Shown here: positions 4,785 to 64,000 of the stretch, one piece after another | How the letters are laid out: every line of letters begins with the position of its first letter | How positions within the stretch are numbered: position 1 is the first letter of the stretch | Assembly: GCA_963810095.1 (NCBI GenBank) | Contig: CAWEMM010000006.1 | Span: 1,419,353 to 1,483,352, forward strand | Reading direction: 5' to 3' | From: an uncultured Chloroflexia bacterium | GTDB taxonomy: Bacteria > Chloroflexota > Anaerolineae > CG2-30-64-16 | Length of the DNA: 64,000 bases | The notes under the pieces: model-generated | Seen by the model: the letters and a program-made list of their open reading frames with translations, nothing else | What the model was told of the DNA's origin: nothing | Database searches by the model: none | Translations under genes and position numbers: made by a program

Positions 4785-5125
4785 TTTGTTGGGGGCCGTC
4801 TGGCCCCCAACGCCCCCGACGGGGGGCTGCGCCCCCTCGTCCCCCAAAGGTTAAGGGGACGCGTGGCTTCCGCCAATTGGCCCATTTGAGCGTCCACATG
4901 GCGGGGCCAGACGGAAGCGGCTTGCGGGAAACCGGCATTTTGTGGAAGCACGGTTCTGATGCCGACTGCCGTGAGCGAGTCCGGCTGCTGCCCGCTGTCA
5001 ACACGGCCGGGGGCGTTGACCTTGGGGGTTTCGGGGGCAAGGCCCCCGAGGCGGGGGCGGCGGGGCAAGCCTGCCCCCGCCAAGACAAGATGTAGCAAGG
5101 GCGGCGGGGCAAGCCGGCCACAACA
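4785..5125. repeat. composite GC-rich hairpin repeat, copy A (full length)
   Basis: It contains ordered modules. First is the hairpin GTTGGGGGCC-gtct-GGCCCCCAAC (4788-4811). Next come GGGGCTGCGCCCCCTCG, GGCTTGCGGGAAACCGGCATTTTGTGGAAGCAC and the hairpin TCGGGGGC-aag-GCCCCCGA (5031-5049). It ends with GGCGGGGCA...TGCCCCCGCC. The same order is seen at 42896-43287. Confidence 0.8.
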
Positions 5126-14936: not shown

Positions 14937-15135
14937 CGCCTGATGACTATTTTGCGGGGGCGCTCTTGCCCCCGCCGCCCCGACGCGAGTGGCTGCCCAC
15001 GACCGACTCATTGGCGGGGAGCGCTCTCGCCCCCGACGCGAGGGGTTGCCACGACCGACTCATTGGCGGGAGCGCTCTTGCCCCCGCCGCCCCCGACCAG
15101 GGGCTGCGCCCCTTGGAACCCCAAAGGCAGCGCTG
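14937..15135. repeat. GC-rich hairpin repeat, copy B (tandem sub-units of about 57 bp)
   Basis: The unit CGACCGACTCATTGGCGGG(G)AGCGCTCT(T/C)GCCCCCG occurs about 2.5 times. There is a hairpin GCGGGGGC-gctctt-GCCCCCGC at 14954-14975. The copy ends with the family module CCAGGGGCTGCGCCCCTTGGAACCCCAAAGG. Confidence 0.75.
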
Positions 15136-35298: not shown

Positions 35299-35381
35299 GC
35301 CGAAGTGGCGGAACGGTAGACGCGACGGTCTCAAACACCGTTGGGGGTTGCCCCATGTGGGTTCGATTCCCACCTTCGGCA
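35299..35381 (+). tRNA. tRNA-Leu (anticodon CAA), class II with a long variable arm
   Basis: The acceptor pairs GCCGAAG with CTTCGGC plus discriminator A. The anticodon stem pairs ACGGT with ACCGT and the loop is CTCAAAC. The T-arm is GTGGGTTCGATTCCCAC. No CCA is encoded. Confidence 0.9.
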
Positions 35382-42895: not shown

Positions 42896-43287
42896 TTCTT
42901 TTGTTGGGGGCCGCCGGCCCCATCCATTGGATATGTCTTCTGTTGGGGGCCGCCGGCCCCCAACGCCCCGGCCGAGGGGCTGCGCCCCCTCGACCCCCAA
43001 ACTTACTCGGGGAACAGTTCATTTGTGGAGCAACGGCTGGGGCCCACGGACCGCTGCGGGGCTGCCAGTTGCGGGCTTGCACGAGGCCGGCATTTTAGGA
43101 AATGCGCGAGCAATAGCCTCCTCGGGGACATGCAGACGCCGATCTCTTTGGCGATAACTACGCCAGGAGCGTAGCAATTGGGGGTCTCGGGGGCAACGCC
43201 CCCGAGGCGGGGTTGGCAGGGGCCGGCCGGCCCCTGCCAAAAGACCGGAACCTCGAAGCGGGGTGGACGGAGGCCGCCGGCCCCTGC
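42896..43287. repeat. composite GC-rich hairpin repeat, copy D (full length)
   Basis: It begins with two GTTGGGGGCCGCCGGCCCC(C)A hairpins. These are followed by CGAGGGGCTGCGCCCCCTCG, GGCTTGCACGAGGCCGGCATTTTAGGAAATGCGC and CTCGGGGGCAACGCCCCCGAG. It ends with two GGCAGGGGCCGGCCGGCCCCTGCC-type hairpins. Confidence 0.8.
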
Positions 43288-55532: not shown

Positions 55533-58386
55533 ATGAGCGCTAGCATCGAAGCCTGGCGGATCGTTCCCTACGAAGGAGGCGCATCGCCCGTTCAAGAAGG
55601 TGCGGGTGCGCGACGAGGCCGCGGGTGCGCGCGGTCGTGCGGCACCTGATGAACGACGAGTGCGTCGCCTTGCTCGGTCCGCCCATGAGCGAGAAGAGCC
55701 ACCTGCTGCGGGACGTGGCGGAGGCGCTGGAGCAGGGCGGTCGCTTCCGGCCGCTGCATATCGACTTGTGGCGCACACGATCGAACGATGAGGCCGCCTT
55801 CTTCACCAGCCTTGCCGAGTCTGCTGGCCGACGAGCTGCGGGACGCCGGCGCCGCGAGTCCCGACGAGCCGGCCGAGCACGCGCGGTTCCAGGGTTATCT
55901 CGCCGCTTGCGAATGCGAGCGGCCGCAGCCTTGCGCTGCTGATCGATCACCTGCAGGCGCTGCCGCACGACCTCGTCCACAGCCTGCTGCGTCGCCCTGC
56001 GCGCGGCCTACATGGAGCGCGAGGCCGACGCGCCGCACAGCCTGGTCGCGGTGGTCACCGGCGGCATCAACCTCGTCGGTCTGTCCGTCCGGCCCGACCT
56101 CGCCGTTCAACATCGCCAAACCCGTGGTCGCGACACCGCTGACCCTCGAACAGAGCCGCGCGCTGGCCGAGGCGACGCTCAAGCGCTGGAGTGCTCGGCA
56201 TCCGCCAACGGCATGGACCGCTTGCTGAGCCTGGGCGCAGGCGACCGGTACCTGATTCCGCGGCTCTGCGCCGACAGCTCCGAACTGGTCAGCTTGCACC
56301 GCCTGCACCGCGTGACGTCGGCCATTGCGGATCGCGCCGGCGCGGGCGCTCGTCGCCCGCGGACGCGGCCGCCGCCCGTTCGCGCCGCCATCCGCATGAT
56401 CGAGGAAGACCCGGACACGGTGCTGGACGTGCTGCACCTGCTCGACCACGGCTCGCTGCCGCGCTCACGCTCGCGCCAGATGCCGACGCGCACCGGCACG
56501 GACCGGCTGCAGCTCTCGGGCGCGGTGGTCCTGGTCGGATGGGTGCTACGGCTTTATGAACGAGGCGTACCGCGAGGCGTTGGCCGCGCACTTCACCACC
56601 GACCGGGTCGGGCACATGTTGCGGATTGCCGGGCCGGTGGAGCGAGGCGATCGCCTATCTCGCGCCGCAGCGGGCGCGCGTCGCGCGTCCGCAGCTGCTC
56701 GAAGCCATCGTCCAGATCGATCTATGCGAGCTGACTCGTCCGAACAGGCGTATCGGGCTGCTGGCCGACGGCCTGCGGCTCGGCTTCGGCCTGTCGGACA
56801 TCGGCATCTACTGCGGCGCTGCCGGCCGACTGCTCAGCTCGACCGCGTCTATCCGCCCAAGGACGGCGGCCCGAGGAGCACGTCGACCTGCGCGATCCCG
56901 GGTGCGTCGAGGCCCAGACCTTCAACCTGGGCAACTATGCGCTGCGCGGCACCGCGGATGAGGCGCGCCTGGTCGTCGCGCTGGCATCGGCCAGCCGGCC
57001 GCTCGGCGTCGTGACGATCGAACGCTATGTGCAGAACCGCGATCCGCACGAGCTGCCCGACGAACTGCCCGACCTGCTGCGTTTCCTGCAGCACGCAGTC
57101 CGGGGCGCTGGAAAACGTCATCACTCGGGCTGCCTACCGCGCCATCGGACAGGCCGTGCTGGATGCCAAGGCCATGCAGCCGACCGTGGAGCGGGTGCTC
57201 GAGACGGTAGCGGAGGCGCTTGGGCTGCGACTACGGCGCCCTGTATCTGCGGGATGAGACCGCCGCCAGCTGGAGATGGCCGCAGCAGTCGGCAGGGTGG
57301 TGACGGAGGAGTGGCAGGCGCAGGCGCGCTTTCCCCTCGACGGCCGACACCCCGCGGTCACCGCGCTGCTGGAGGGGCGGATGTTGACGGCGCGAGGGGG
57401 CGAGGACGCAGAGGACCGCGTGCTGCACGACCGTTTCGGCCTGCACCGCTACCTGCGCGTCTTCCTGCCTCTGCTCGCCGGCGGCGAACAGCTCGGCACG
57501 CTCGAACTGGGCTACGCGAGCCGGCCGCATGCGCATGTCGGATGAGCTACAAGCGGACGCTGGTCGAGTTCGCCGACCAGGTGGCGATCGCGGTGCATAA
57601 CATGCTGCTGCTGCGGCGGACGGACGAGGCGCTGGCACGCGCAAGCTGGCCGAGCTTGTCGGTGGGCCGCGAGATTCAGCTCAGCCTGCTGCCGAAGGTC
57701 ACGCCGACCGTTCCCGGCTGGCAGTTCGCGGCCATGTACGAGGCCGCCCGCACCGTCGGCGGCGACTTCTACGACTTCTGCGAATTGCCGGGTCCGCCCG
57801 CATCGGCTGGGCGTCGTCATTGCCGATGTGGCGGACAAGGGCGTGCCGGCCGCGCTGTTCATGGCGGTCAGCCGGACGATCATTCGCAGCGTCGCGCTTC
57901 ACCGGCCGCGGCCCGGCCGTCTGCCCTGATGCGAGCGAACCAACTGATTCTCGCCGACAGCCAGGCCGACCTGTTCCTGAGCGCGATCTACCTGGTGCTC
58001 GAGACCGACAACGGGCGCGGATTTCGTTCAGCAACGCGGGGCACAACCGGCCGCTGCTGGTACCGCGCTGCGGACCGCGCAGCTCACGCGAGCTGACCCA
58101 GCGCGGCATCATCCTGGGCGCGTTCGACGAGATCACGCTGCAGGACGACACGGCTGGACCTGGCCGCCGGCGACGTGCTGGTGCTGTACACGGACGGCGT
58201 CACGGACGCGCTCAACGCGGACGGGCGAGGAGTTCGGCGAGCAGCGCCTGTTCGACGTGGTGCGGGGCAGCGCCGCACGGCAGCGCGCAGGAGATCCTGT
58301 GGGCGATCACGGGCGCGCTGGCGGGCTTCATCGGCGACACGGAGCAGGCGGACGACGTGACCTGCGTCGTGATCAAGAAGGACTAG
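55533..58386 (+). pseudogene. STAND-like ATPase fused to two GAF domains and a PP2C/SpoIIE phosphatase; at least 12 +1 frame disruptions
   Basis: The fragments begin with VALLGPPMSEKSHLL (P-loop) and LALLIDHLQALPHD. The GAF-like fragments are LETVAEALG..GALYLRD and FLPLLAGGEQLGTLELGY. The SpoIIE fragments are [53 protein letters not shown] and DDVTCVVIKKD-stop. Confidence 0.7.
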
Positions 58387-58475
58387 GCCTTTGTTTGTTG
58401 GGGCCCGGATGACCCTCAACACCTGGTTGCATGGGCCGCCTTGCTGTTGGGGGCCGTCGGGCCCCCAACGCCCCC
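58387..58475. repeat. GC-rich hairpin repeat, copy E, left part (interrupted by the IS)
   Basis: It contains GTTGGGGCCCGGATGACCCTCAAC and GTTGGGGGCCGTCGGGCCCCCAACGCCCCC, ending exactly at the IS481 left end. Confidence 0.7.
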
Positions 58476-58562
58476 GTGTATAGACCGGGGACATAGTAGA
58501 CAGTCGTTCGGAGACATGGTAGACGCTAGAATGGGAATAACTGCCACCGGAAGGAGGCTGAT

Positions 58563-59705
58563 ATGCCCTGGCGAGAGGCAAATGCCATGTCCTTACGACT
58601 TGATTTCGTGACCCGAGCTGGTCACGAAGCTGCTAACGTGCGGGCCCTGTGCCGCGAGTTCGGTATCAGCCCGAACACTGCGTACAAGTGGCTTGTGCGC
58701 TACCAGGCGGCGGGGCCCGCGGGGCTGGCCGATCGCTCACGGCGCCCGAACGCAGTCCGAGCCGACACGCCGCCCGGCCGCGAACAGTTGGTGCTGGCGA
58801 CGCGCCAGGCCCACCCGGCCTGGGGCGGCCGCAAGCTCAAGGCCTACCTGGAGCAGGCCGGCTATGCGGACGTGCCGGCAGCTTCCACCATCACAGCCAT
58901 TCTGCGCCGGCACGGGGCGCTGGATGACCAGGAGGGCGCTCAGCATCGCGCCTTTCAGCGTTTCGAACGTGAGGCGCCCAACGAGCTGTGGCAGATGGAC
59001 TTCAAGGGCCATTTTGCGCTCGGGGATGGTACGCGCTGCGACCCCTTGACGGTCCTCGACGACCATGCGCGCTTCCTGTTGGCGCTGGACGCCTGTGCCG
59101 ACGAGACCCGCCGCACGGTGCAGGCCGCGCTGACCGGCGTCTTCGAGCGCTACGGCTTGCCCGAGCGCATCCTGTGCGATCATGGGCCACCGTGGGGCGC
59201 CCCCAATGCCGGCGACGTGTACACGACGTTGAGTGCGTGGCTCTTGCGGCTGGGCATCGGGGTCGTGCACGGGCGGCCCAAGCATCCGCAGACGCAAGGC
59301 AAGGACGAGCGATTGCATCGCACGTTGCGGGCCGAGTTGCTGCGCCGGCAGACGTTCGCCGATCTGCCGGCCTGTCAGCCCGCCTTCGATACCTGGCGGC
59401 AGATGTATAATGAACAGCGCCCGCATGAGGCGCTAGCCATGCAGGTGCCGGCGGCCCGCTATCGGCCCAGCCCGCGCCCGTGGCCCGCCCGCCTGCCCGC
59501 GATCGAGTATCCGGCCAGCGACCGAGTGCGCCGGGTGCAAGATAAGGGCCAGATCAAAGTCGGCGGCCACGAGTTTCGCATCGGCAAAGCCTTCATCGGC
59601 TACCCGGTGGGCCTCCGGCCCACGAACCAGGACGGCTGCTATGACGTTTACTTCTGCGCCCAGCGCATTGGCCAAATTCAACTATCCGCCGGGCAACGGA
59701 TTTAG
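58563..59705 (+). CDS. IS481-family transposase (DDE integrase core), intact
   Basis: The N-terminal HTH reads MPWREANAMSLRLDFV...LCREFGISPNTAYKWLVRY...DRSRRP. The rve-type core reads ELWQMDFKG...DHGPPWG...KHPQTQGKDERLHRTL. Confidence 0.9.
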   Translation: MPWREANAMSLRLDFVTRAGHEAANVRALCREFGISPNTAYKWLVRYQAAGPAGLADRSRRPNAVRADTPPGREQLVLATRQAHPAWGGRKLKAYLEQAGYADVPAASTITAILRRHGALDDQEGAQHRAFQRFEREAPNELWQMDFKGHFALGDGTRCDPLTVLDDHARFLLALDACADETRRTVQAALTGVFERYGLPERILCDHGPPWGAPNAGDVYTTLSAWLLRLGIGVVHGRPKHPQTQGKDERLHRTLRAELLRRQTFADLPACQPAFDTWRQMYNEQRPHEALAMQVPAARYRPSPRPWPARLPAIEYPASDRVRRVQDKGQIKVGGHEFRIGKAFIGYPVGLRPTNQDGCYDVYFCAQRIGQIQLSAGQRI

Positions 59706-59709
59706 CTCA

Positions 59710-61518
59710 GCCTGTGGGTAAGGGGCTGTCCGAAAAGTAATCGGGCGGCCCCTTTTTTGCGTGCTTTTCTCGCGTTCTTTAAGGATTCATGGTTTAATGG
59801 GGGCATGAAACGCAAACCTGCTGCCCCCGTCTTCAAGCCCTACACGATGGCTCAGCCGCAGTTGCTGCCGCCGAGCCTGGATGAGTTGATCGAGCCGGAC
59901 CACCTGGTGCGGGTGGTAAATGCGGCGATCGACCAGTTGGATTTGCGGCCGCTGCTGGCGCAGTACCCCGGCGGCGGGACGTCCAGCTATCATCCGCAGA
60001 TGCTGCTGAAGGTGTTGGTGTACGCCTATTGCAGCAAGATCTACTCGTCGCGGCGGATTGCGGCGGCGCTGCGGGAGAACATTCACTTCATGTGGTTGAG
60101 TGGCGGGAACCGGCCGGACTTTCGCACGATCAACGACTTTCGCGGGCAGCGGATGAAGGGCGTGATCGACGCGGTGTTCGCCGAGGTGCTGCAGTACCTG
60201 GTCGAGGCGGGGTACGTGCAGTTGGAGCACTACTTCGTCGACGGGACGAAGATCGCCGCCGATGCGAACCAGCACAAGGTGGTGTGGGCCAAGCGCACGG
60301 CGCGTTACCAGCAGCGGGTGCGGGAGCAGATCGCGTGAGTTGCTGCGGCAGATCGAGCAGGTGAATGCTGACGAGCAGGCCGAGTACGGCGATGCCGATC
60401 TGGAAGAGCGGGGCCGGCGGTGGGGGTGGCGAGATCGACTCGGACGCAACTCAAGGAGCGCATCGACCAACTCAACCAGCGGCTCCGCGAGCGTCAGCAC
60501 CCCAAGCCCGAAGCCCAGGCAGCCGAGAAGGCGCTGAAGAAACTGGCGACGGATTGTCTGCCGCGGTTGGAGAAGTACGAGCAGCAGACCGCGACGCTGG
60601 CGGGGCGGTCGAGCTATGCCCAGACCGACCCGGACGCCACGTGCATGCGGATGAAGGAAGACCGCGGCGCCGAGCGGCCCTGGCCCAAGCCGGCCTACAA
60701 CGTGCAGGTGGGCACGGAAGGGCAATTCATCGTCGGGTTCAGCGTGCACGACCAGGCGGGCGACACCGGGTGCCTGATCCCGCATCTGGAGCAGGTGCGC
60801 CAGAACACCGGCGGCCGCTTACCGCAGAACGTGGTGGCGGATGCGGGGTACGGCAGCGAAGAGAACTACGCCTATCTGGAACAGCAGCAGGTGGGCAACT
60901 ACCTCAAGTACAACACCTTCTACCAGGACACGCATCATTACCGCGACCCGGCCGTGCTGCGGGCGCACCAGTTCCGGGCCGAGAACTTCGCCTACGACGC
61001 GGCCACCGACACCTTCGTCTGCCCGGCCGGCCAGCGGCTGCACTTCCAGTACACCACCCGCTACACCAGCGACAACGGCTACCTGAGCGACCGCCGCATC
61101 TACGAATGCTTCGCGTGTGCCGACTGCCCGCTGCGCAGCCAGTGCACCCGGGCCAAAGGCAACCGCCAGATTCGCATCAGTTTCCGCTTGCTCGCCTACC
61201 GCAAGCAAGCCCGCGACAACCTGACCAGCGCCGACAGGTGAGCGCTTACGCGCCGCGCGCTCCGTCGAGGTGGAAACCGTCTTCGGGCATATCAAACAGA
61301 ATATGGGCTTCCGGAGATTTCACTTACGCGGGCGGGCGAAAGTGAAGACCGAATGGGGGCTCGTGAGCATCGCTCACAACCTGAAGAAGGTGGCGGCCGC
61401 ATAGGCCGCTTTTTTTCTCCGCTTTCCGCGAGCTCCAACTCATCTCCCGCTGACTCCGAATCGGCACAAGAAAGGGGCTGCCTGGATGTTCTTTCCAGAC
61501 AGCCCCTTACCCACAGGC
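59710..61518 (+). mobile_element. IS1182-family insertion sequence, nested 5 nt after the IS481 transposase stop
   Basis: The terminal inverted repeats are 28 bp with 2 mismatches. The left one is GCCTGTGGGTAAGGGGCTGTCCGAAAAG (59710-59737). The right one is the reverse complement of CTTTCCAGACAGCCCCTTACCCACAGGC (61491-61518). I saw no clear target duplication. Confidence 0.8.
59805..61404 (+). pseudogene. IS1182-family transposase with four +1 frame disruptions
   Basis: The frame order is 0>1>2>0>1. The fragments are MKRKPAAPVFKPYTMAQPQLLPPSLDELIEPDHLVR..., ELLRQIEQVNADEQAEY, QLKERIDQLNQRL...DAGYGSEENYAYLE...CPLRSQCTRAKGNRQI and the tail VEVETVFGHIKQNMGFRRFHLRG...NLKKVAAA-stop. Confidence 0.85.
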
Positions 61519-61603
61519 CCGACGCGACGACACCATTCTTTAAGGTGTTCAGGTGTCTACGATGTCCCCGAACACCTGTCTACGATGTATTCGGTCCATA
61601 CAC

Positions 61604-61760
61604 CCCGACGAAGGGCTGCGCCGCTTCGACCCCCTAATTTGCTCGGGCAGCACCGCATCCGCCGTCTAACGCGCACGGCTGCCGGCCGGGACGGGGCCGA
61701 CAGTGGCAGGCTTGCACGAACCGACGCGATGGAAAATGTACGTCAGGCGGTTTCGCTTTG
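61604..61760. repeat. GC-rich hairpin repeat, copy E, right part
   Basis: CCCGACGAAGGGCTGCGCCGCTTCGACCCCCTAA and GGCAGGCTTGCACGAACCGACGCGATGGAAAATGTACG are colinear with modules 2-3 of copies A and D. Confidence 0.6.
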
Positions 61761-61762
61761 CA

Positions 61763-64000
61763 TCAAGGGCGGCGGGGGCCCGCGGGACCGGGCCAAAGCG
61801 GGAAACCGCCGCCCGTCACAGGCAGGGTGCCGGGCCCACGCAGGACGTCCGACTTGAAGCGCGGGATGATACGGTAGCCCGCGTCGGGCGTCTTCTCGCC
61901 CACGGACTGCCCCAGGACGCCCTGCCGCGGCCCACATCTGCCCGATCTGCACGTAGGGGCGGCGCCAGGGCAGGCTCTCGGGGAAGTAGATGCGGATCAG
62001 CCCGGCCCTGTCTTTCAAGACCAGGCCGCGCGTCTCGTACTTGACCACCGCACCCACGACCTGCACGAGCCTCCCCTCGTTCGCTTCTGCCAGGTCCGCC
62101 GAGGTGACCGGCTGCGGCGCGACAGCCTTGCCTTCGCCCAGCACTGTTAAGTAACCGGCATCGGGGACAGATAACTCGGTTTCTCCGTAGAAGTCGCGGG
62201 TCCAGCCCGTGACCCGCACCCGGCTGCCCGGCTTCAGCGTGGGATAGTCGCCTTTGCGCAGGTAGACCTTGATGCCCCCTGTCTCGTCCTGCAAGTAGAT
62301 CGTCTTCGCAATCAGCCCGGGCGGGAAAGTCACGGTGCCGCTGACGACGGCGCGACTGTCTACCTTCGCCGAGCGGGCCGCCGCGACGGTTTGCGGAACC
62401 GGCGGGGGCGTGGCTTGGGGCGGAGCAGGCGCCGCGGGCGCAGGAGGCGGCAGCAGGCGGTTCGGCTGGCCCGGCGTCGCCTCGCAGTCGGACGTCCACC
62501 CGCCTACGCCGTCGGTGTTCCGACAGTAACTGCGGTCTGCGCCCGGCCCATGGTCATAGGCGAAGCGGTCTGCCAACGTCCCGTCGCTCCTGGTGAGGGT
62601 CACCGAGTCGCGCCAGTCGCTCAGCGAGAGACGGGTCTGGCCGCGGAAGAACAGCATGAAGCTGTGGGGCCAGATCACGGCGCCCGCGGGAATGCGGTAG
62701 CTCGCGGCCTCATCGCCGATCTGCCAGCCCTCCAGGGGGACGGCGCTGCCCGTCGGATTATGCAACTCGATCCATTCGTCCGAGAAGTTCGCCGTGCCGT
62801 CGCGATCCCAGTCGACCGAGCGCGGGTCAGGGAGGATTTCATTCAGCTTGACCTTCAGCGCATCGGGCGGGAGCGGGGTGGGGGTCGGCGTCTGCGTGGA
62901 CGTGGGCGAGGCCGTGACGGTGCCGGTGGGAGTGCGCGTTGGCGTGACAGTGCGCGTGGGTGTGGAGGTGCGCGTGGGCGTGACGGTACGCGTGGGTGTG
63001 GAGGTGCGGGTGGGCGTCGGCGTGGCGGCGGGATCGCGGGTTGGGGTCGCGGTCGGCGTTGCGGTGGGCACGAGGGTCGTGCGCTCGCCTGGGTTGGGCG
63101 CTTGGCGGGTCCAGTCCGCCGCGCTGTCACTGTCCTGGAGGTTCCAGCGGCCTAGTGACTCGCCGGCACGCACTTTCTCGCAGGGCGGCTCGTTAATGCT
63201 CGTGTCCGAGCCGTAGCTCATGGCGTCGACGACGGTGGCGTCGGGTGCGAGGAGGCGGACCGCGTCGCCGGTGTTGCTCAGCCCGTTGCCAATGGCGCCC
63301 TCGAGGCTGACGAGCAGGCCCGAGAAGCCGGGGAAACTGGCGCGGAACGCGGCTTCTTTGGCGGCAACAACGGCATATTCGCCGGGCAGCAGGCTGAACT
63401 CGGGCAGCGCGTCCTGGCCCGTGTTGTCGCCGATGCGCCAGCCCGAGAGCAGGACCGCGTCGCCCGTGGGGTTCACGATCTCGACGAACTCCCAATCGGC
63501 ATCCGCGCCGTCTTGGATAGGGTCGTACAGCACTTCACTTAGGAGCAGCTTCGGCCAAGCCGCCGGATACGGGAGAGTTGGCGAAGGCGTCGGCGTGGCT
63601 GTGCGGGTGGAGGCGGGCGTGCGCGTGACTGTAGGCGTGCGGGTGACCGTGGGACTTGGGCCGGCCGTTCGCGTCGCAGCCGGCGTGCGGGTTGCGCTCG
63701 CGGTCCGAGTCGGAGTCCGCGTGAGGGTTGCAGTCCGCGTGATTGCGGTCCGCGTTGGGCTCGCGGTGCGGGTTGGGCTGGGGGTGCGGGTCGGCGTCGG
63801 AGTGGGCGTGCTTTCGATCGTCCCGCTCACGCCGGGATTGGGGACCGATTGCCCATACCAGTCTTCTGCCGTGCCGGTGTCCATGTCGCTGGGGATACGC
63901 GACAAGGACTCGCCGGCCGCTACCCCGGGGCACGCCGGGTCGAACGCCGTCGTATCTGAGCCATAGCTCATCGCATCTGCCAGCACGCCGTTCGGCGCCA
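61763..64000 (-). pseudogene. secreted multi-LTD (lamin-tail-domain) / OB-fold protein; 5' end outside the window, with one +1 disruption near 61935
   Basis: There are three LTD-like repeats (SEVLYDPIQDGADADWEFVEIVNPTGDAVLLSGWRIGD; NEILPDPRSVDWDRDGTANFSDEWIELHNPTGSAVPLEGWQIGD; a partial one at the window edge). They are separated by TPTRT-type linkers. An OB-like region follows (VVSGTVTFPPGLIAKTIYLQDETGGIKVYL). The tail GVLGQSVGEKTPDAGYRIIPRFKSDV lies in the next frame. Confidence 0.8.
62932..63020 (-). repeat. 36-bp tandem repeat (about 2.5 copies) encoding the Pro-Thr-Arg linker
   Basis: Unit 62932-62967 and unit 62968-63003 differ at 3 positions. They encode STPTRTVTPTRT repeats within the LTD protein. 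Confidence 0.8.

Follow-up and report, generated by a model that had tools for sequence, protein, structure and literature searches.

How one insertion sequence (IS) comes to lie inside another, and both of them inside a hairpin repeat, is the question raised by a locus in the genome of an uncultured Chloroflexia bacterium. The locus lies towards one end of a stretch of 64,000 nucleotides (assembly GCA_963810095.1, contig CAWEMM010000006.1, positions 1,419,353 to 1,483,352), and we refer to the whole of this stretch as the window. An earlier note, made from the sequence of the window, described a nested arrangement, with an IS1182-type element lying in an IS481-type element that itself lies in a member of a GC-rich hairpin repeat family, and this nesting holds as the core of our own reading; with considerable confidence, we interpret the locus as three stacked layers of ordinary mobile DNA. 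Both elements are new members of known families, and they refine known biology rather than change it; the family-defining features that we tested are present in both, with the exception of an intact transposase in the inner element as sequenced. Filled and empty sites can also be compared cleanly here as a natural pair, which documents the IS1272-type, duplication-free replacement of a hairpin by an IS1182-family element far outside the staphylococci.

The outer element and its ends

The outer element is delimited by its relatives. A protein search recovered homologues of its transposase, at 76-82% amino-acid identity, on the short contigs L081-L085, and a protein that is 98% identical to it (P0241) on L090, a 20-kb metagenome contig carrying the same IS481 element uninterrupted (1367 bp, approximately 99% nucleotide identity). 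When the DNA is aligned, the homology of the window to L081-L085 and L090 starts at TGTATAGACC (58477) and stops at ...TATACA (61602), and L084 is a contig that consists of exactly the IS481 element, 1373 bp in length. The element and its parts are as follows.

58477-61602, plus strand: IS481-family element with TGT...ACA ends, which are the exact limits of its homology with L081-L085 and L090
58477-58531, plus strand: terminal inverted repeat at the left end of the IS481-type element, containing the sub-repeat ACATNGTAGAC twice, at 58491 and 58514, conserved in relatives
58563-59705, plus strand: IS481-family DDE transposase of 380 amino acids with an open frame, identified with NF033577 and Pfam
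61548-61602, minus strand: terminal inverted repeat at the right end of the IS481-type element, containing the sub-repeat ACATCGTAGAC twice

As found, the element measures 3126 bp, or 1341 bp when the inner element is subtracted, and uninterrupted relatives are 1366-1373 bp long. The earlier note had put the ends at 58476 and 61603 and had described imperfect inverted repeats with two sub-repeats each; the repeats and sub-repeats stand, while the exact ends are 58477 (TGT) and 61602 (ACA) instead. Taken over 58476-58531 and 61548-61603, the terminal inverted repeats comprise 56 nt and are 79% complementary, and the 64-kb window contains exactly four occurrences of the sub-repeat ACATNGTAGAC, a pair in either terminal repeat, where 0.04 occurrences would be expected by chance. 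The same note had allowed that other copies might end differently, or that the repeats at 58476 and 61603 might belong to the host repeat family and not be IS termini. L081-L085 and L090 stop at identical bases, and unrelated genomes show the same TGTATAGACCGG...CCGGTCYATACA ends at 70 distinct sites, which identifies the repeats as the termini of an IS.

The transposase scores 265.1 bits against NF033577, the NCBIfam model of the IS481 family (cutoff 224), falls below the cutoffs of the IS3 and IS21 models, and contains the Pfam domains rve, rve_3, HTH_32 and LZ_Tnp_IS481. A scan of a genome collection returned relatives of this protein at 57% identity or less, and a megablast search of the composite against a plasmid collection returned no match.

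Insertion into a REP-like repeat

The sequence that received the outer element resembles the REP (repetitive extragenic palindromic) elements of other bacteria, and its two halves are found on either side of the insertion.

58445-58476, plus strand: left half of the interrupted two-hairpin REP-like module, found with nhmmer and aligning with repeat copies A and B
58472-58476: left target-site duplication CCCCG, read from the sequence
61603-61607: right target-site duplication CCCCG, read from the sequence
61608-61640, plus strand: right half of the interrupted REP-like module, with hairpin 2 and a CCCCC-TAA tail, found with nhmmer

With the ends set at TGT...ACA, the flanks in the window read ...GCCCCCG, then the IS, then CCCCGACG..., and the 5-bp duplication CCCCG is exact. 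The earlier note had thought the target duplication ambiguous, a short C-run at most, and in this it was mistaken; the flank sequences and the repeat copy A (4802-4833) were quoted correctly, and the proposal that the composite sits in a GC-rich hairpin repeat is borne out, for the empty site reconstructed by removing one CCCCG aligns with copies A and B without gaps. The left half of the module contains hairpin 1 (TTGGGGGCC-GTCG-GGCCCCCAA) followed by the spacer. Copies A, B, C and D were combined in an nhmmer profile, whose matches fall at 58445-58477 (model positions 2-34) and at 61603-61640 (model positions 29-66); the halves thus share 5-6 positions of the model, which is approximately the length of the duplication. 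Approximately 80 nt beyond the right half resemble the interior of copy B (69% identity to 42967-43084).

The host module is approximately 65 bp long and GC-rich, comprises two hairpins (DNA fold of -24 kcal/mol, z = -4.2) and lies just downstream of a phosphatase-like gene. The 64 kb contain three full copies of the family, the split copy and several partial copies, all of them just downstream of open reading frames (ORFs), and so within the window the family has the properties of REP sequences or of REPINs (REP doublets forming hairpins): short, GC-rich, imperfect, extragenic, repeated palindromes. The arrangement of the modules varies. At 4786-5083 and 42941-43240 they occur as inverted pairs approximately 300 bp apart with partly similar interiors, resembling REPINs or miniature inverted-repeat transposable elements (MITEs), and at 14954-15128 a single two-hairpin module is accompanied by tandem partial copies; the inverted-pair and tandem modules are all found just downstream of plus-strand ORFs.

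In the mechanism that we propose, the IS481 element would have entered the C-run or spacer between the two hairpins, its DDE transposase making a staggered cut of 5 bp that would leave CCCCG duplicated; the chemistry of the cut is something we infer. Insertion into this repeat has occurred more than once. On L090 the IS481 insertion is flanked by copper oxidase and GlnE genes, and the 5 bp duplicated there, CCGCC, lie 2 bp further along in another module of this repeat family; being next to different genes, it is therefore independent of the insertion in the window. The IS481 copy of L082 (82% identity) sits in a similar module, so that one repeat family has received three independent hits (window, L090 and L082).

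The inner element and its empty site

The inner element and what remains of its target are listed below.

59710-59721: remaining outer 12 nt of the left arm of the IS481 palindrome, GCCTGTGGGTAA, from comparison with L090
59722-61506, plus strand: IS1182-family element of 1785 bp with ends GGGGCTGTCC...GGACAGCCCC, from alignment with the intact copies L086-L089
59722-59752, plus strand: left terminal hairpin of the IS1182-type element, then TTTTTT, from the DNA fold
61474-61506, minus strand: right terminal hairpin of the IS1182-type element, then TTTCTT on the minus strand, from inverted-repeat pair I16 and the DNA fold
61507-61518: remaining outer 12 nt of the right arm of the IS481 palindrome, TTACCCACAGGC, from comparison with L090

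Here too relatives supply the boundaries. L086-L089 share homology with the window from GGGGCTGTCC to GACAGCCCC, and their flanks beyond these points are unrelated; both end motifs are present in nearly all of 84 related loci (L086-L089 together with 80 metagenome loci), among which several contigs break exactly at them. From these shared limits of homology it follows that the inner element is 59722-61506. Its terminal inverted repeats, GGGGCTGTCCGAAAAG and CTTTCCAGACAGCCCC, are conserved in nearly all 84 loci.

The uninterrupted IS481 copies reveal what the inner element entered. In L090 (7148-7196), a perfect palindrome, GCCTGTGGGTAA-GTGGGCAGGC-CACAC-GCCTGCCCAC-TTACCCACAGGC, with arms of 22 bp and a 5-nt loop, folds as DNA at -30.9 kcal/mol (z = -9.5). 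A 49-bp palindrome is likewise found in L081-L085 at the position of the window's insert, and no 1.8-kb insert occurs there. It lies just after the transposase stop codon and is restricted to one clade of the IS481 subgroup; it is absent in L001-L080, more distant relatives proceeding straight from the stop codon to the right inverted repeat. Set against this empty site, the inner element replaces the central 25 bp of the palindrome, that is, the inner 10 bp of each arm and the 5-nt loop, and no target duplication accompanies it. With L090 as the empty site, the insertion combines the features of the IS1272-type mode: a hairpin target, part of which is deleted, and no duplication. We suggest that the IS1182 element would have entered the palindrome just past the IS481 stop codon by cutting each arm 12 bp above the stem base, and that the central 25 bp would have been discarded without any duplication being left, in the 'inverted-repeat-replacing' mode known for IS1272.

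The palindrome itself was considered as a canonical intrinsic terminator and rejected as such, since no T-run follows it. Covariation within it is too sparse to speak for a function: there are two compensatory pairs, and 65 of 500 shuffles do as well.

Each end of the IS1182 element is a hairpin of 31-33 nt with a T-rich run on its inner side (59722-59758 on the plus strand, 61468-61506 on the minus strand). The left hairpin and its T-run (59722-59760) fold as DNA at -11.5 kcal/mol (z = -4.2), and the right hairpin with its T-rich run (61465-61506, minus strand) at -14.1 kcal/mol (z = -5.5). These hairpins are conserved in relatives, with G-T to A-T changes, and they have the appearance of terminators that face inward and would prevent transcripts from reading through into the element.

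Hairpins as landing sites

The two target sites in the window can be placed beside those of other copies. For the IS481 subgroup we surveyed the relatives recovered by the genome-collection scan, which occupy 70 distinct sites, or 71 when the window is added. Exact duplications of 5 bp are present at 22 of the 70 sites and of 6 bp at a further 17 (39/70 together), and the reconstructed empty sites are strikingly palindromic, as in the example CCCTCTCCCCCGCGGG, IS, CGCGGGGAGAGGG. A perfect stem of at least 8 bp, with a loop that touches the insertion point, is found at 28 of the 71 sites compared with 6.7% of mismatched flank pairs (Mann-Whitney P = 5e-11). These statistics therefore make landing in a hairpin repeat a habit of the subgroup and not an accident of one locus; we infer, rather than observe, that such a preference would be a property of the transposase.

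Many copies of the subgroup lie in palindromes of the CCCTCTCCC...GGGAGAGGG type, in Nitrospirales, Dehalococcoidia, Acidobacteriota and other metagenome-assembled genomes. In such copies the duplicated bases often coincide with the palindrome's loop or with one of its arms (for example L001, L007, L026, L029, L063 and L079, among L001-L080).

For the IS1182 clade, both flanks could be read at 59 distinct sites among the 84 related loci. There is no target duplication at 52 of these 59 sites, the same rate as in the control, and leftover stems in register flank five of the 59, against 1.5% in the control (P = 0.002).

Taken together, we lean, by a small degree, towards a general interpretation in which hairpin DNA is the shared landing pad of two unrelated DDE IS lineages in environmental bacteria. 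One would be the IS481 subgroup with TGTATAGACCGG ends, targeting the loops and arms of GC-rich REP-like hairpins with duplications of 5-6 bp; the other would be a widespread IS1182 clade with hairpin ends, in which IS1272-type replacement of the hairpin would be general. Several observations weigh against our reading of the locus and its targets. A small number of repeat-rich genomes contributes many of the 71 IS481 sites, so the sites are not fully independent. Recognisable stem remnants persist at only five of the 59 IS1182-clade sites, and the case for hairpin targeting across that clade is therefore an indirect one. The empty-site sequence was taken from a 99%-identical copy elsewhere and not from the same genome. 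Finally, the IS ends (GGGG/CCCC) are similar to the target (GTGG/CCAC), and this likeness leaves an ambiguity of up to approximately 4 nt in the positions of the cuts.

Alternative explanations

The condition of the inner transposase gene is the point at which an alternative has most force.

59805-61404, plus strand: IS1182-family transposase gene, broken by about five indels, from NF033551 and alignment to intact copies

Three ORF fragments within the outer element match NF033551 at 1-172, 196-431 and 438-487, with scores of 186, 167 and 64 bits, each under the cutoff of 270. When its frame is repaired, the gene encodes a protein of 531 amino acids that scores 453 bits on the IS1182 model against that cutoff, and homologues of this protein at 78% identity are named IS1182 family transposase. 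Relative to intact copies, the indels are +1 at approximately 60334, -1 at approximately 60410, -1 at approximately 60418, +1 at approximately 60442 and +1 at approximately 61234, and because they break the frame the inner element is non-autonomous as sequenced. It is possible, if on balance doubtful, that this degeneracy is an artefact, that is, the product of long-read metagenome consensus errors over a multi-copy element whose real gene is intact. Three of the five indels fall in G-runs, and the repaired protein is 92-94% identical to intact homologues of 531-532 amino acids, with no in-frame stop apart from the indels. Similar irregularities lie close by, in a sequence that stems from a 1.92-Mb contig: the adjacent GAF/SpoIIE gene is split over at least three frames, and the outer transposase gene has, relative to L090, a compensated -1/+1 indel pair at 58749 and 58764. 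Residues 63-68 of the outer protein form an out-of-frame patch, NAVRAD in the window against TRSPSH in L090; TRSPSH fits the IS481 family pattern, and the score on the family model falls slightly, from 271.8 bits for the L090-like sequence to the 265.1 bits of the window. Against an artefact, two of the inner indels are single-base insertions outside homopolymers, and many ORFs of 450-740 amino acids are unbroken elsewhere in the window. The contrast drawn in the earlier note between an intact outer and a degenerate inner element consequently applies at the level of ORFs only, given the compensated pair in the former and the prospect that the indels of the latter are consensus errors.

That note had also called the inner element the younger; the order of events at this locus does not follow from the nesting. 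Nesting proves that IS1182 entered an IS481 copy, not that it entered at this locus. With its open transposase frame and both its ends, the outer element might in principle mobilise the whole 3.1-kb composite, to judge from its sequence, and so the composite could have transposed as a unit. We think it unlikely, though deserving of consideration, that the composite was indeed built elsewhere and that the 3.1-kb unit then transposed into this repeat, the order of nesting differing from the order of events at the locus. Such a history would agree with the intact state of the IS481 ends, the transposase frame and the 5-bp duplication alike, and nothing links the IS1182 insertion to this locus. 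However, there is no second composite in the window or in the plasmid collection, L090 is uninterrupted, and just one contig is on record with the exact transposase protein.

A further idea, which we judge very improbable, reverses the relationship between the inner element and the palindrome. The palindrome would consist of IS1182 tips left over after the internal deletion of an old insertion, and the window would retain the full ancestral insertion. Some features are in accord with this: the palindrome is confined to this IS481 clade, its position is exactly that of the IS1182 element, and GTGG/CCAC is common to its inner arms and the IS1182 tips, as is GACAGCC in some relatives. We reject it because the inner arms fail to match those tips, GTGGGCAGGC and GCCTGCCCAC in L090 being different from GGGGCTGTCC and GGACAGCCCC. 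Moreover, the perfect 22-bp arms extend through the outer 12 nt, where the sequence is not that of IS1182, and the IS1182 element in the window has diverged by approximately 8% from intact copies, whereas the palindrome-bearing IS481 lineages are 18-24% apart in protein.

Lastly, the earlier note's own account of the inner element, as 1809 bp (59710-61518) with true 28-bp inverted repeats in plain IS481 sequence 5 nt past the stop codon, is scarcely credible: a 28-nt inverted repeat with two mismatches does exist (59710-59737 and 61491-61518), but L086-L089 and all 58 other flanked sites begin GGGGCTGTCC and end GACAGCCCC with unrelated flanks, and uninterrupted IS481 copies contain both of the outer 12-nt stretches with 25 bp between them. 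Of the 28 nt of the apparent repeat, 12 thus belong to the target stem and 16 to the true repeat, and the boundaries had been drawn 12 nt too wide per side because the arms of the target hairpin were taken for repeats of the element. The duplication-free replacement of 25 bp of a hairpin had accordingly escaped that note.

Neighbouring features

Upstream of the composite, at 57011-58386 on the plus strand, the adjacent host gene, GAF plus SpoIIE/PP2C phosphatase-like, is split over at least three frames, which may reflect a pseudogene or local assembly indels; the region of 49-58 kb has few long, clean ORFs. On the other side, at 61743-63986 on the minus strand, a protein of 747 amino acids is encoded beside the composite; it combines two lamin-tail domains and an OB-fold with long linkers rich in Thr and Pro, and its last 60 residues or so resemble an extension, out of frame, into the repeat region. 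Among ten large ORFs of the window searched with Pfam there was no universal marker. Rfam has a single match across the window, a tRNA at 35299-35381 on the plus strand, and no match within the composite region.

Comparison with known systems

Returning to our reading of the locus as an IS1182-type element that replaced the centre of a hairpin in an IS481-type element, the nearest precedent for the inner insertion is IS1272/TnSha1 of staphylococci, in the IS1182 family (Furi et al. 2016, PMC4923244; Wan et al. 2017, PMC5678879). These elements insert into hairpins, which are often terminators, and delete part of the target without duplicating it (PMC4923244, PMC5678879). Like them, the inner element has an IS1182-family DDE transposase, lies in a stem-loop just downstream of a gene, has cut both arms with the loss of the loop and inner stem, and shows no target duplication and little specificity for primary sequence. 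Unlike them, it comes from an environmental bacterium (67% G+C) and has different ends (GGGGCTGTCC...), its target hairpin is part of another insertion sequence, and its copy is frame-broken as sequenced. A further difference is that 10 of the 22 bp in each arm were removed, and the residual 12-bp arms mimic longer inverted repeats. Wherever an IS lies in a hairpin, the leftover arms of the stem can pass for an additional inverted repeat, and boundaries drawn from a single copy may consequently err by a dozen bases. If our general interpretation is correct, IS1272-type replacement, so far documented in staphylococci, extends to a widespread IS1182 clade.

The outer element shares several features with the IS481 family. 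The prototype, IS481 of Bordetella pertussis, and its relatives are approximately 1-1.3 kb long, have TGT ends and make a short duplication of a palindromic NCTAGN target; the range of direct target duplications given for the family in ISfinder is 4-15 bp. The outer element likewise has a single rve-type DDE transposase that exceeds the NF033577 cutoff, TGT...ACA ends, a short duplication of 5 bp and a preference for symmetric targets. It departs from the prototype in its inverted repeats of approximately 55 bp, each containing two ACATNGTAGAC sub-repeats, in the additional 49-bp palindrome past the stop codon in this clade, and in its targets, which are GC-rich hairpins or REP-like repeats without a 6-bp motif.

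Elements that target REP sequences have been described from several other families. The survey of Tobes and Pareja (2006, PMC1525189) covers the IS3, IS110, IS4, IS256 and IS5 families, with IS481 unmentioned, and its examples include IS1397, ISKpn1 and ISPsy8 of the IS3 family and ISPpu9, ISPpu10 and ISPa11 of the IS110 family (PMC1525189). A literature search for hairpin or REP targeting by the IS481 family found nothing specific. The repeats in the window are comparable to REP sequences, REPINs and bacterial interspersed mosaic elements (BIMEs) in being short, GC-rich, intergenic hairpin modules downstream of genes that occur singly, in tandem and as inverted pairs; they differ in that only a handful of copies is involved, known here from the 64-kb window alone. 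They differ also from the repeats of established REP-targeting elements, being two-hairpin modules that form, in addition, inverted pairs of approximately 300 bp. Nevertheless, the IS481 element resembles REP-targeting elements in landing repeatedly in extragenic, GC-rich, palindromic repeats, and in the bias towards hairpins that runs through its subgroup. The locus thereby points, with statistical support, to an IS481 subgroup that seeks REP-like hairpins, which would, if true, add a REP-targeting family to the IS3, IS110, IS4, IS256 and IS5 families of the 2006 survey (PMC1525189). The locus bears on how transposases choose structured DNA, and on the part played by repeat elements as safe havens for mobile DNA.

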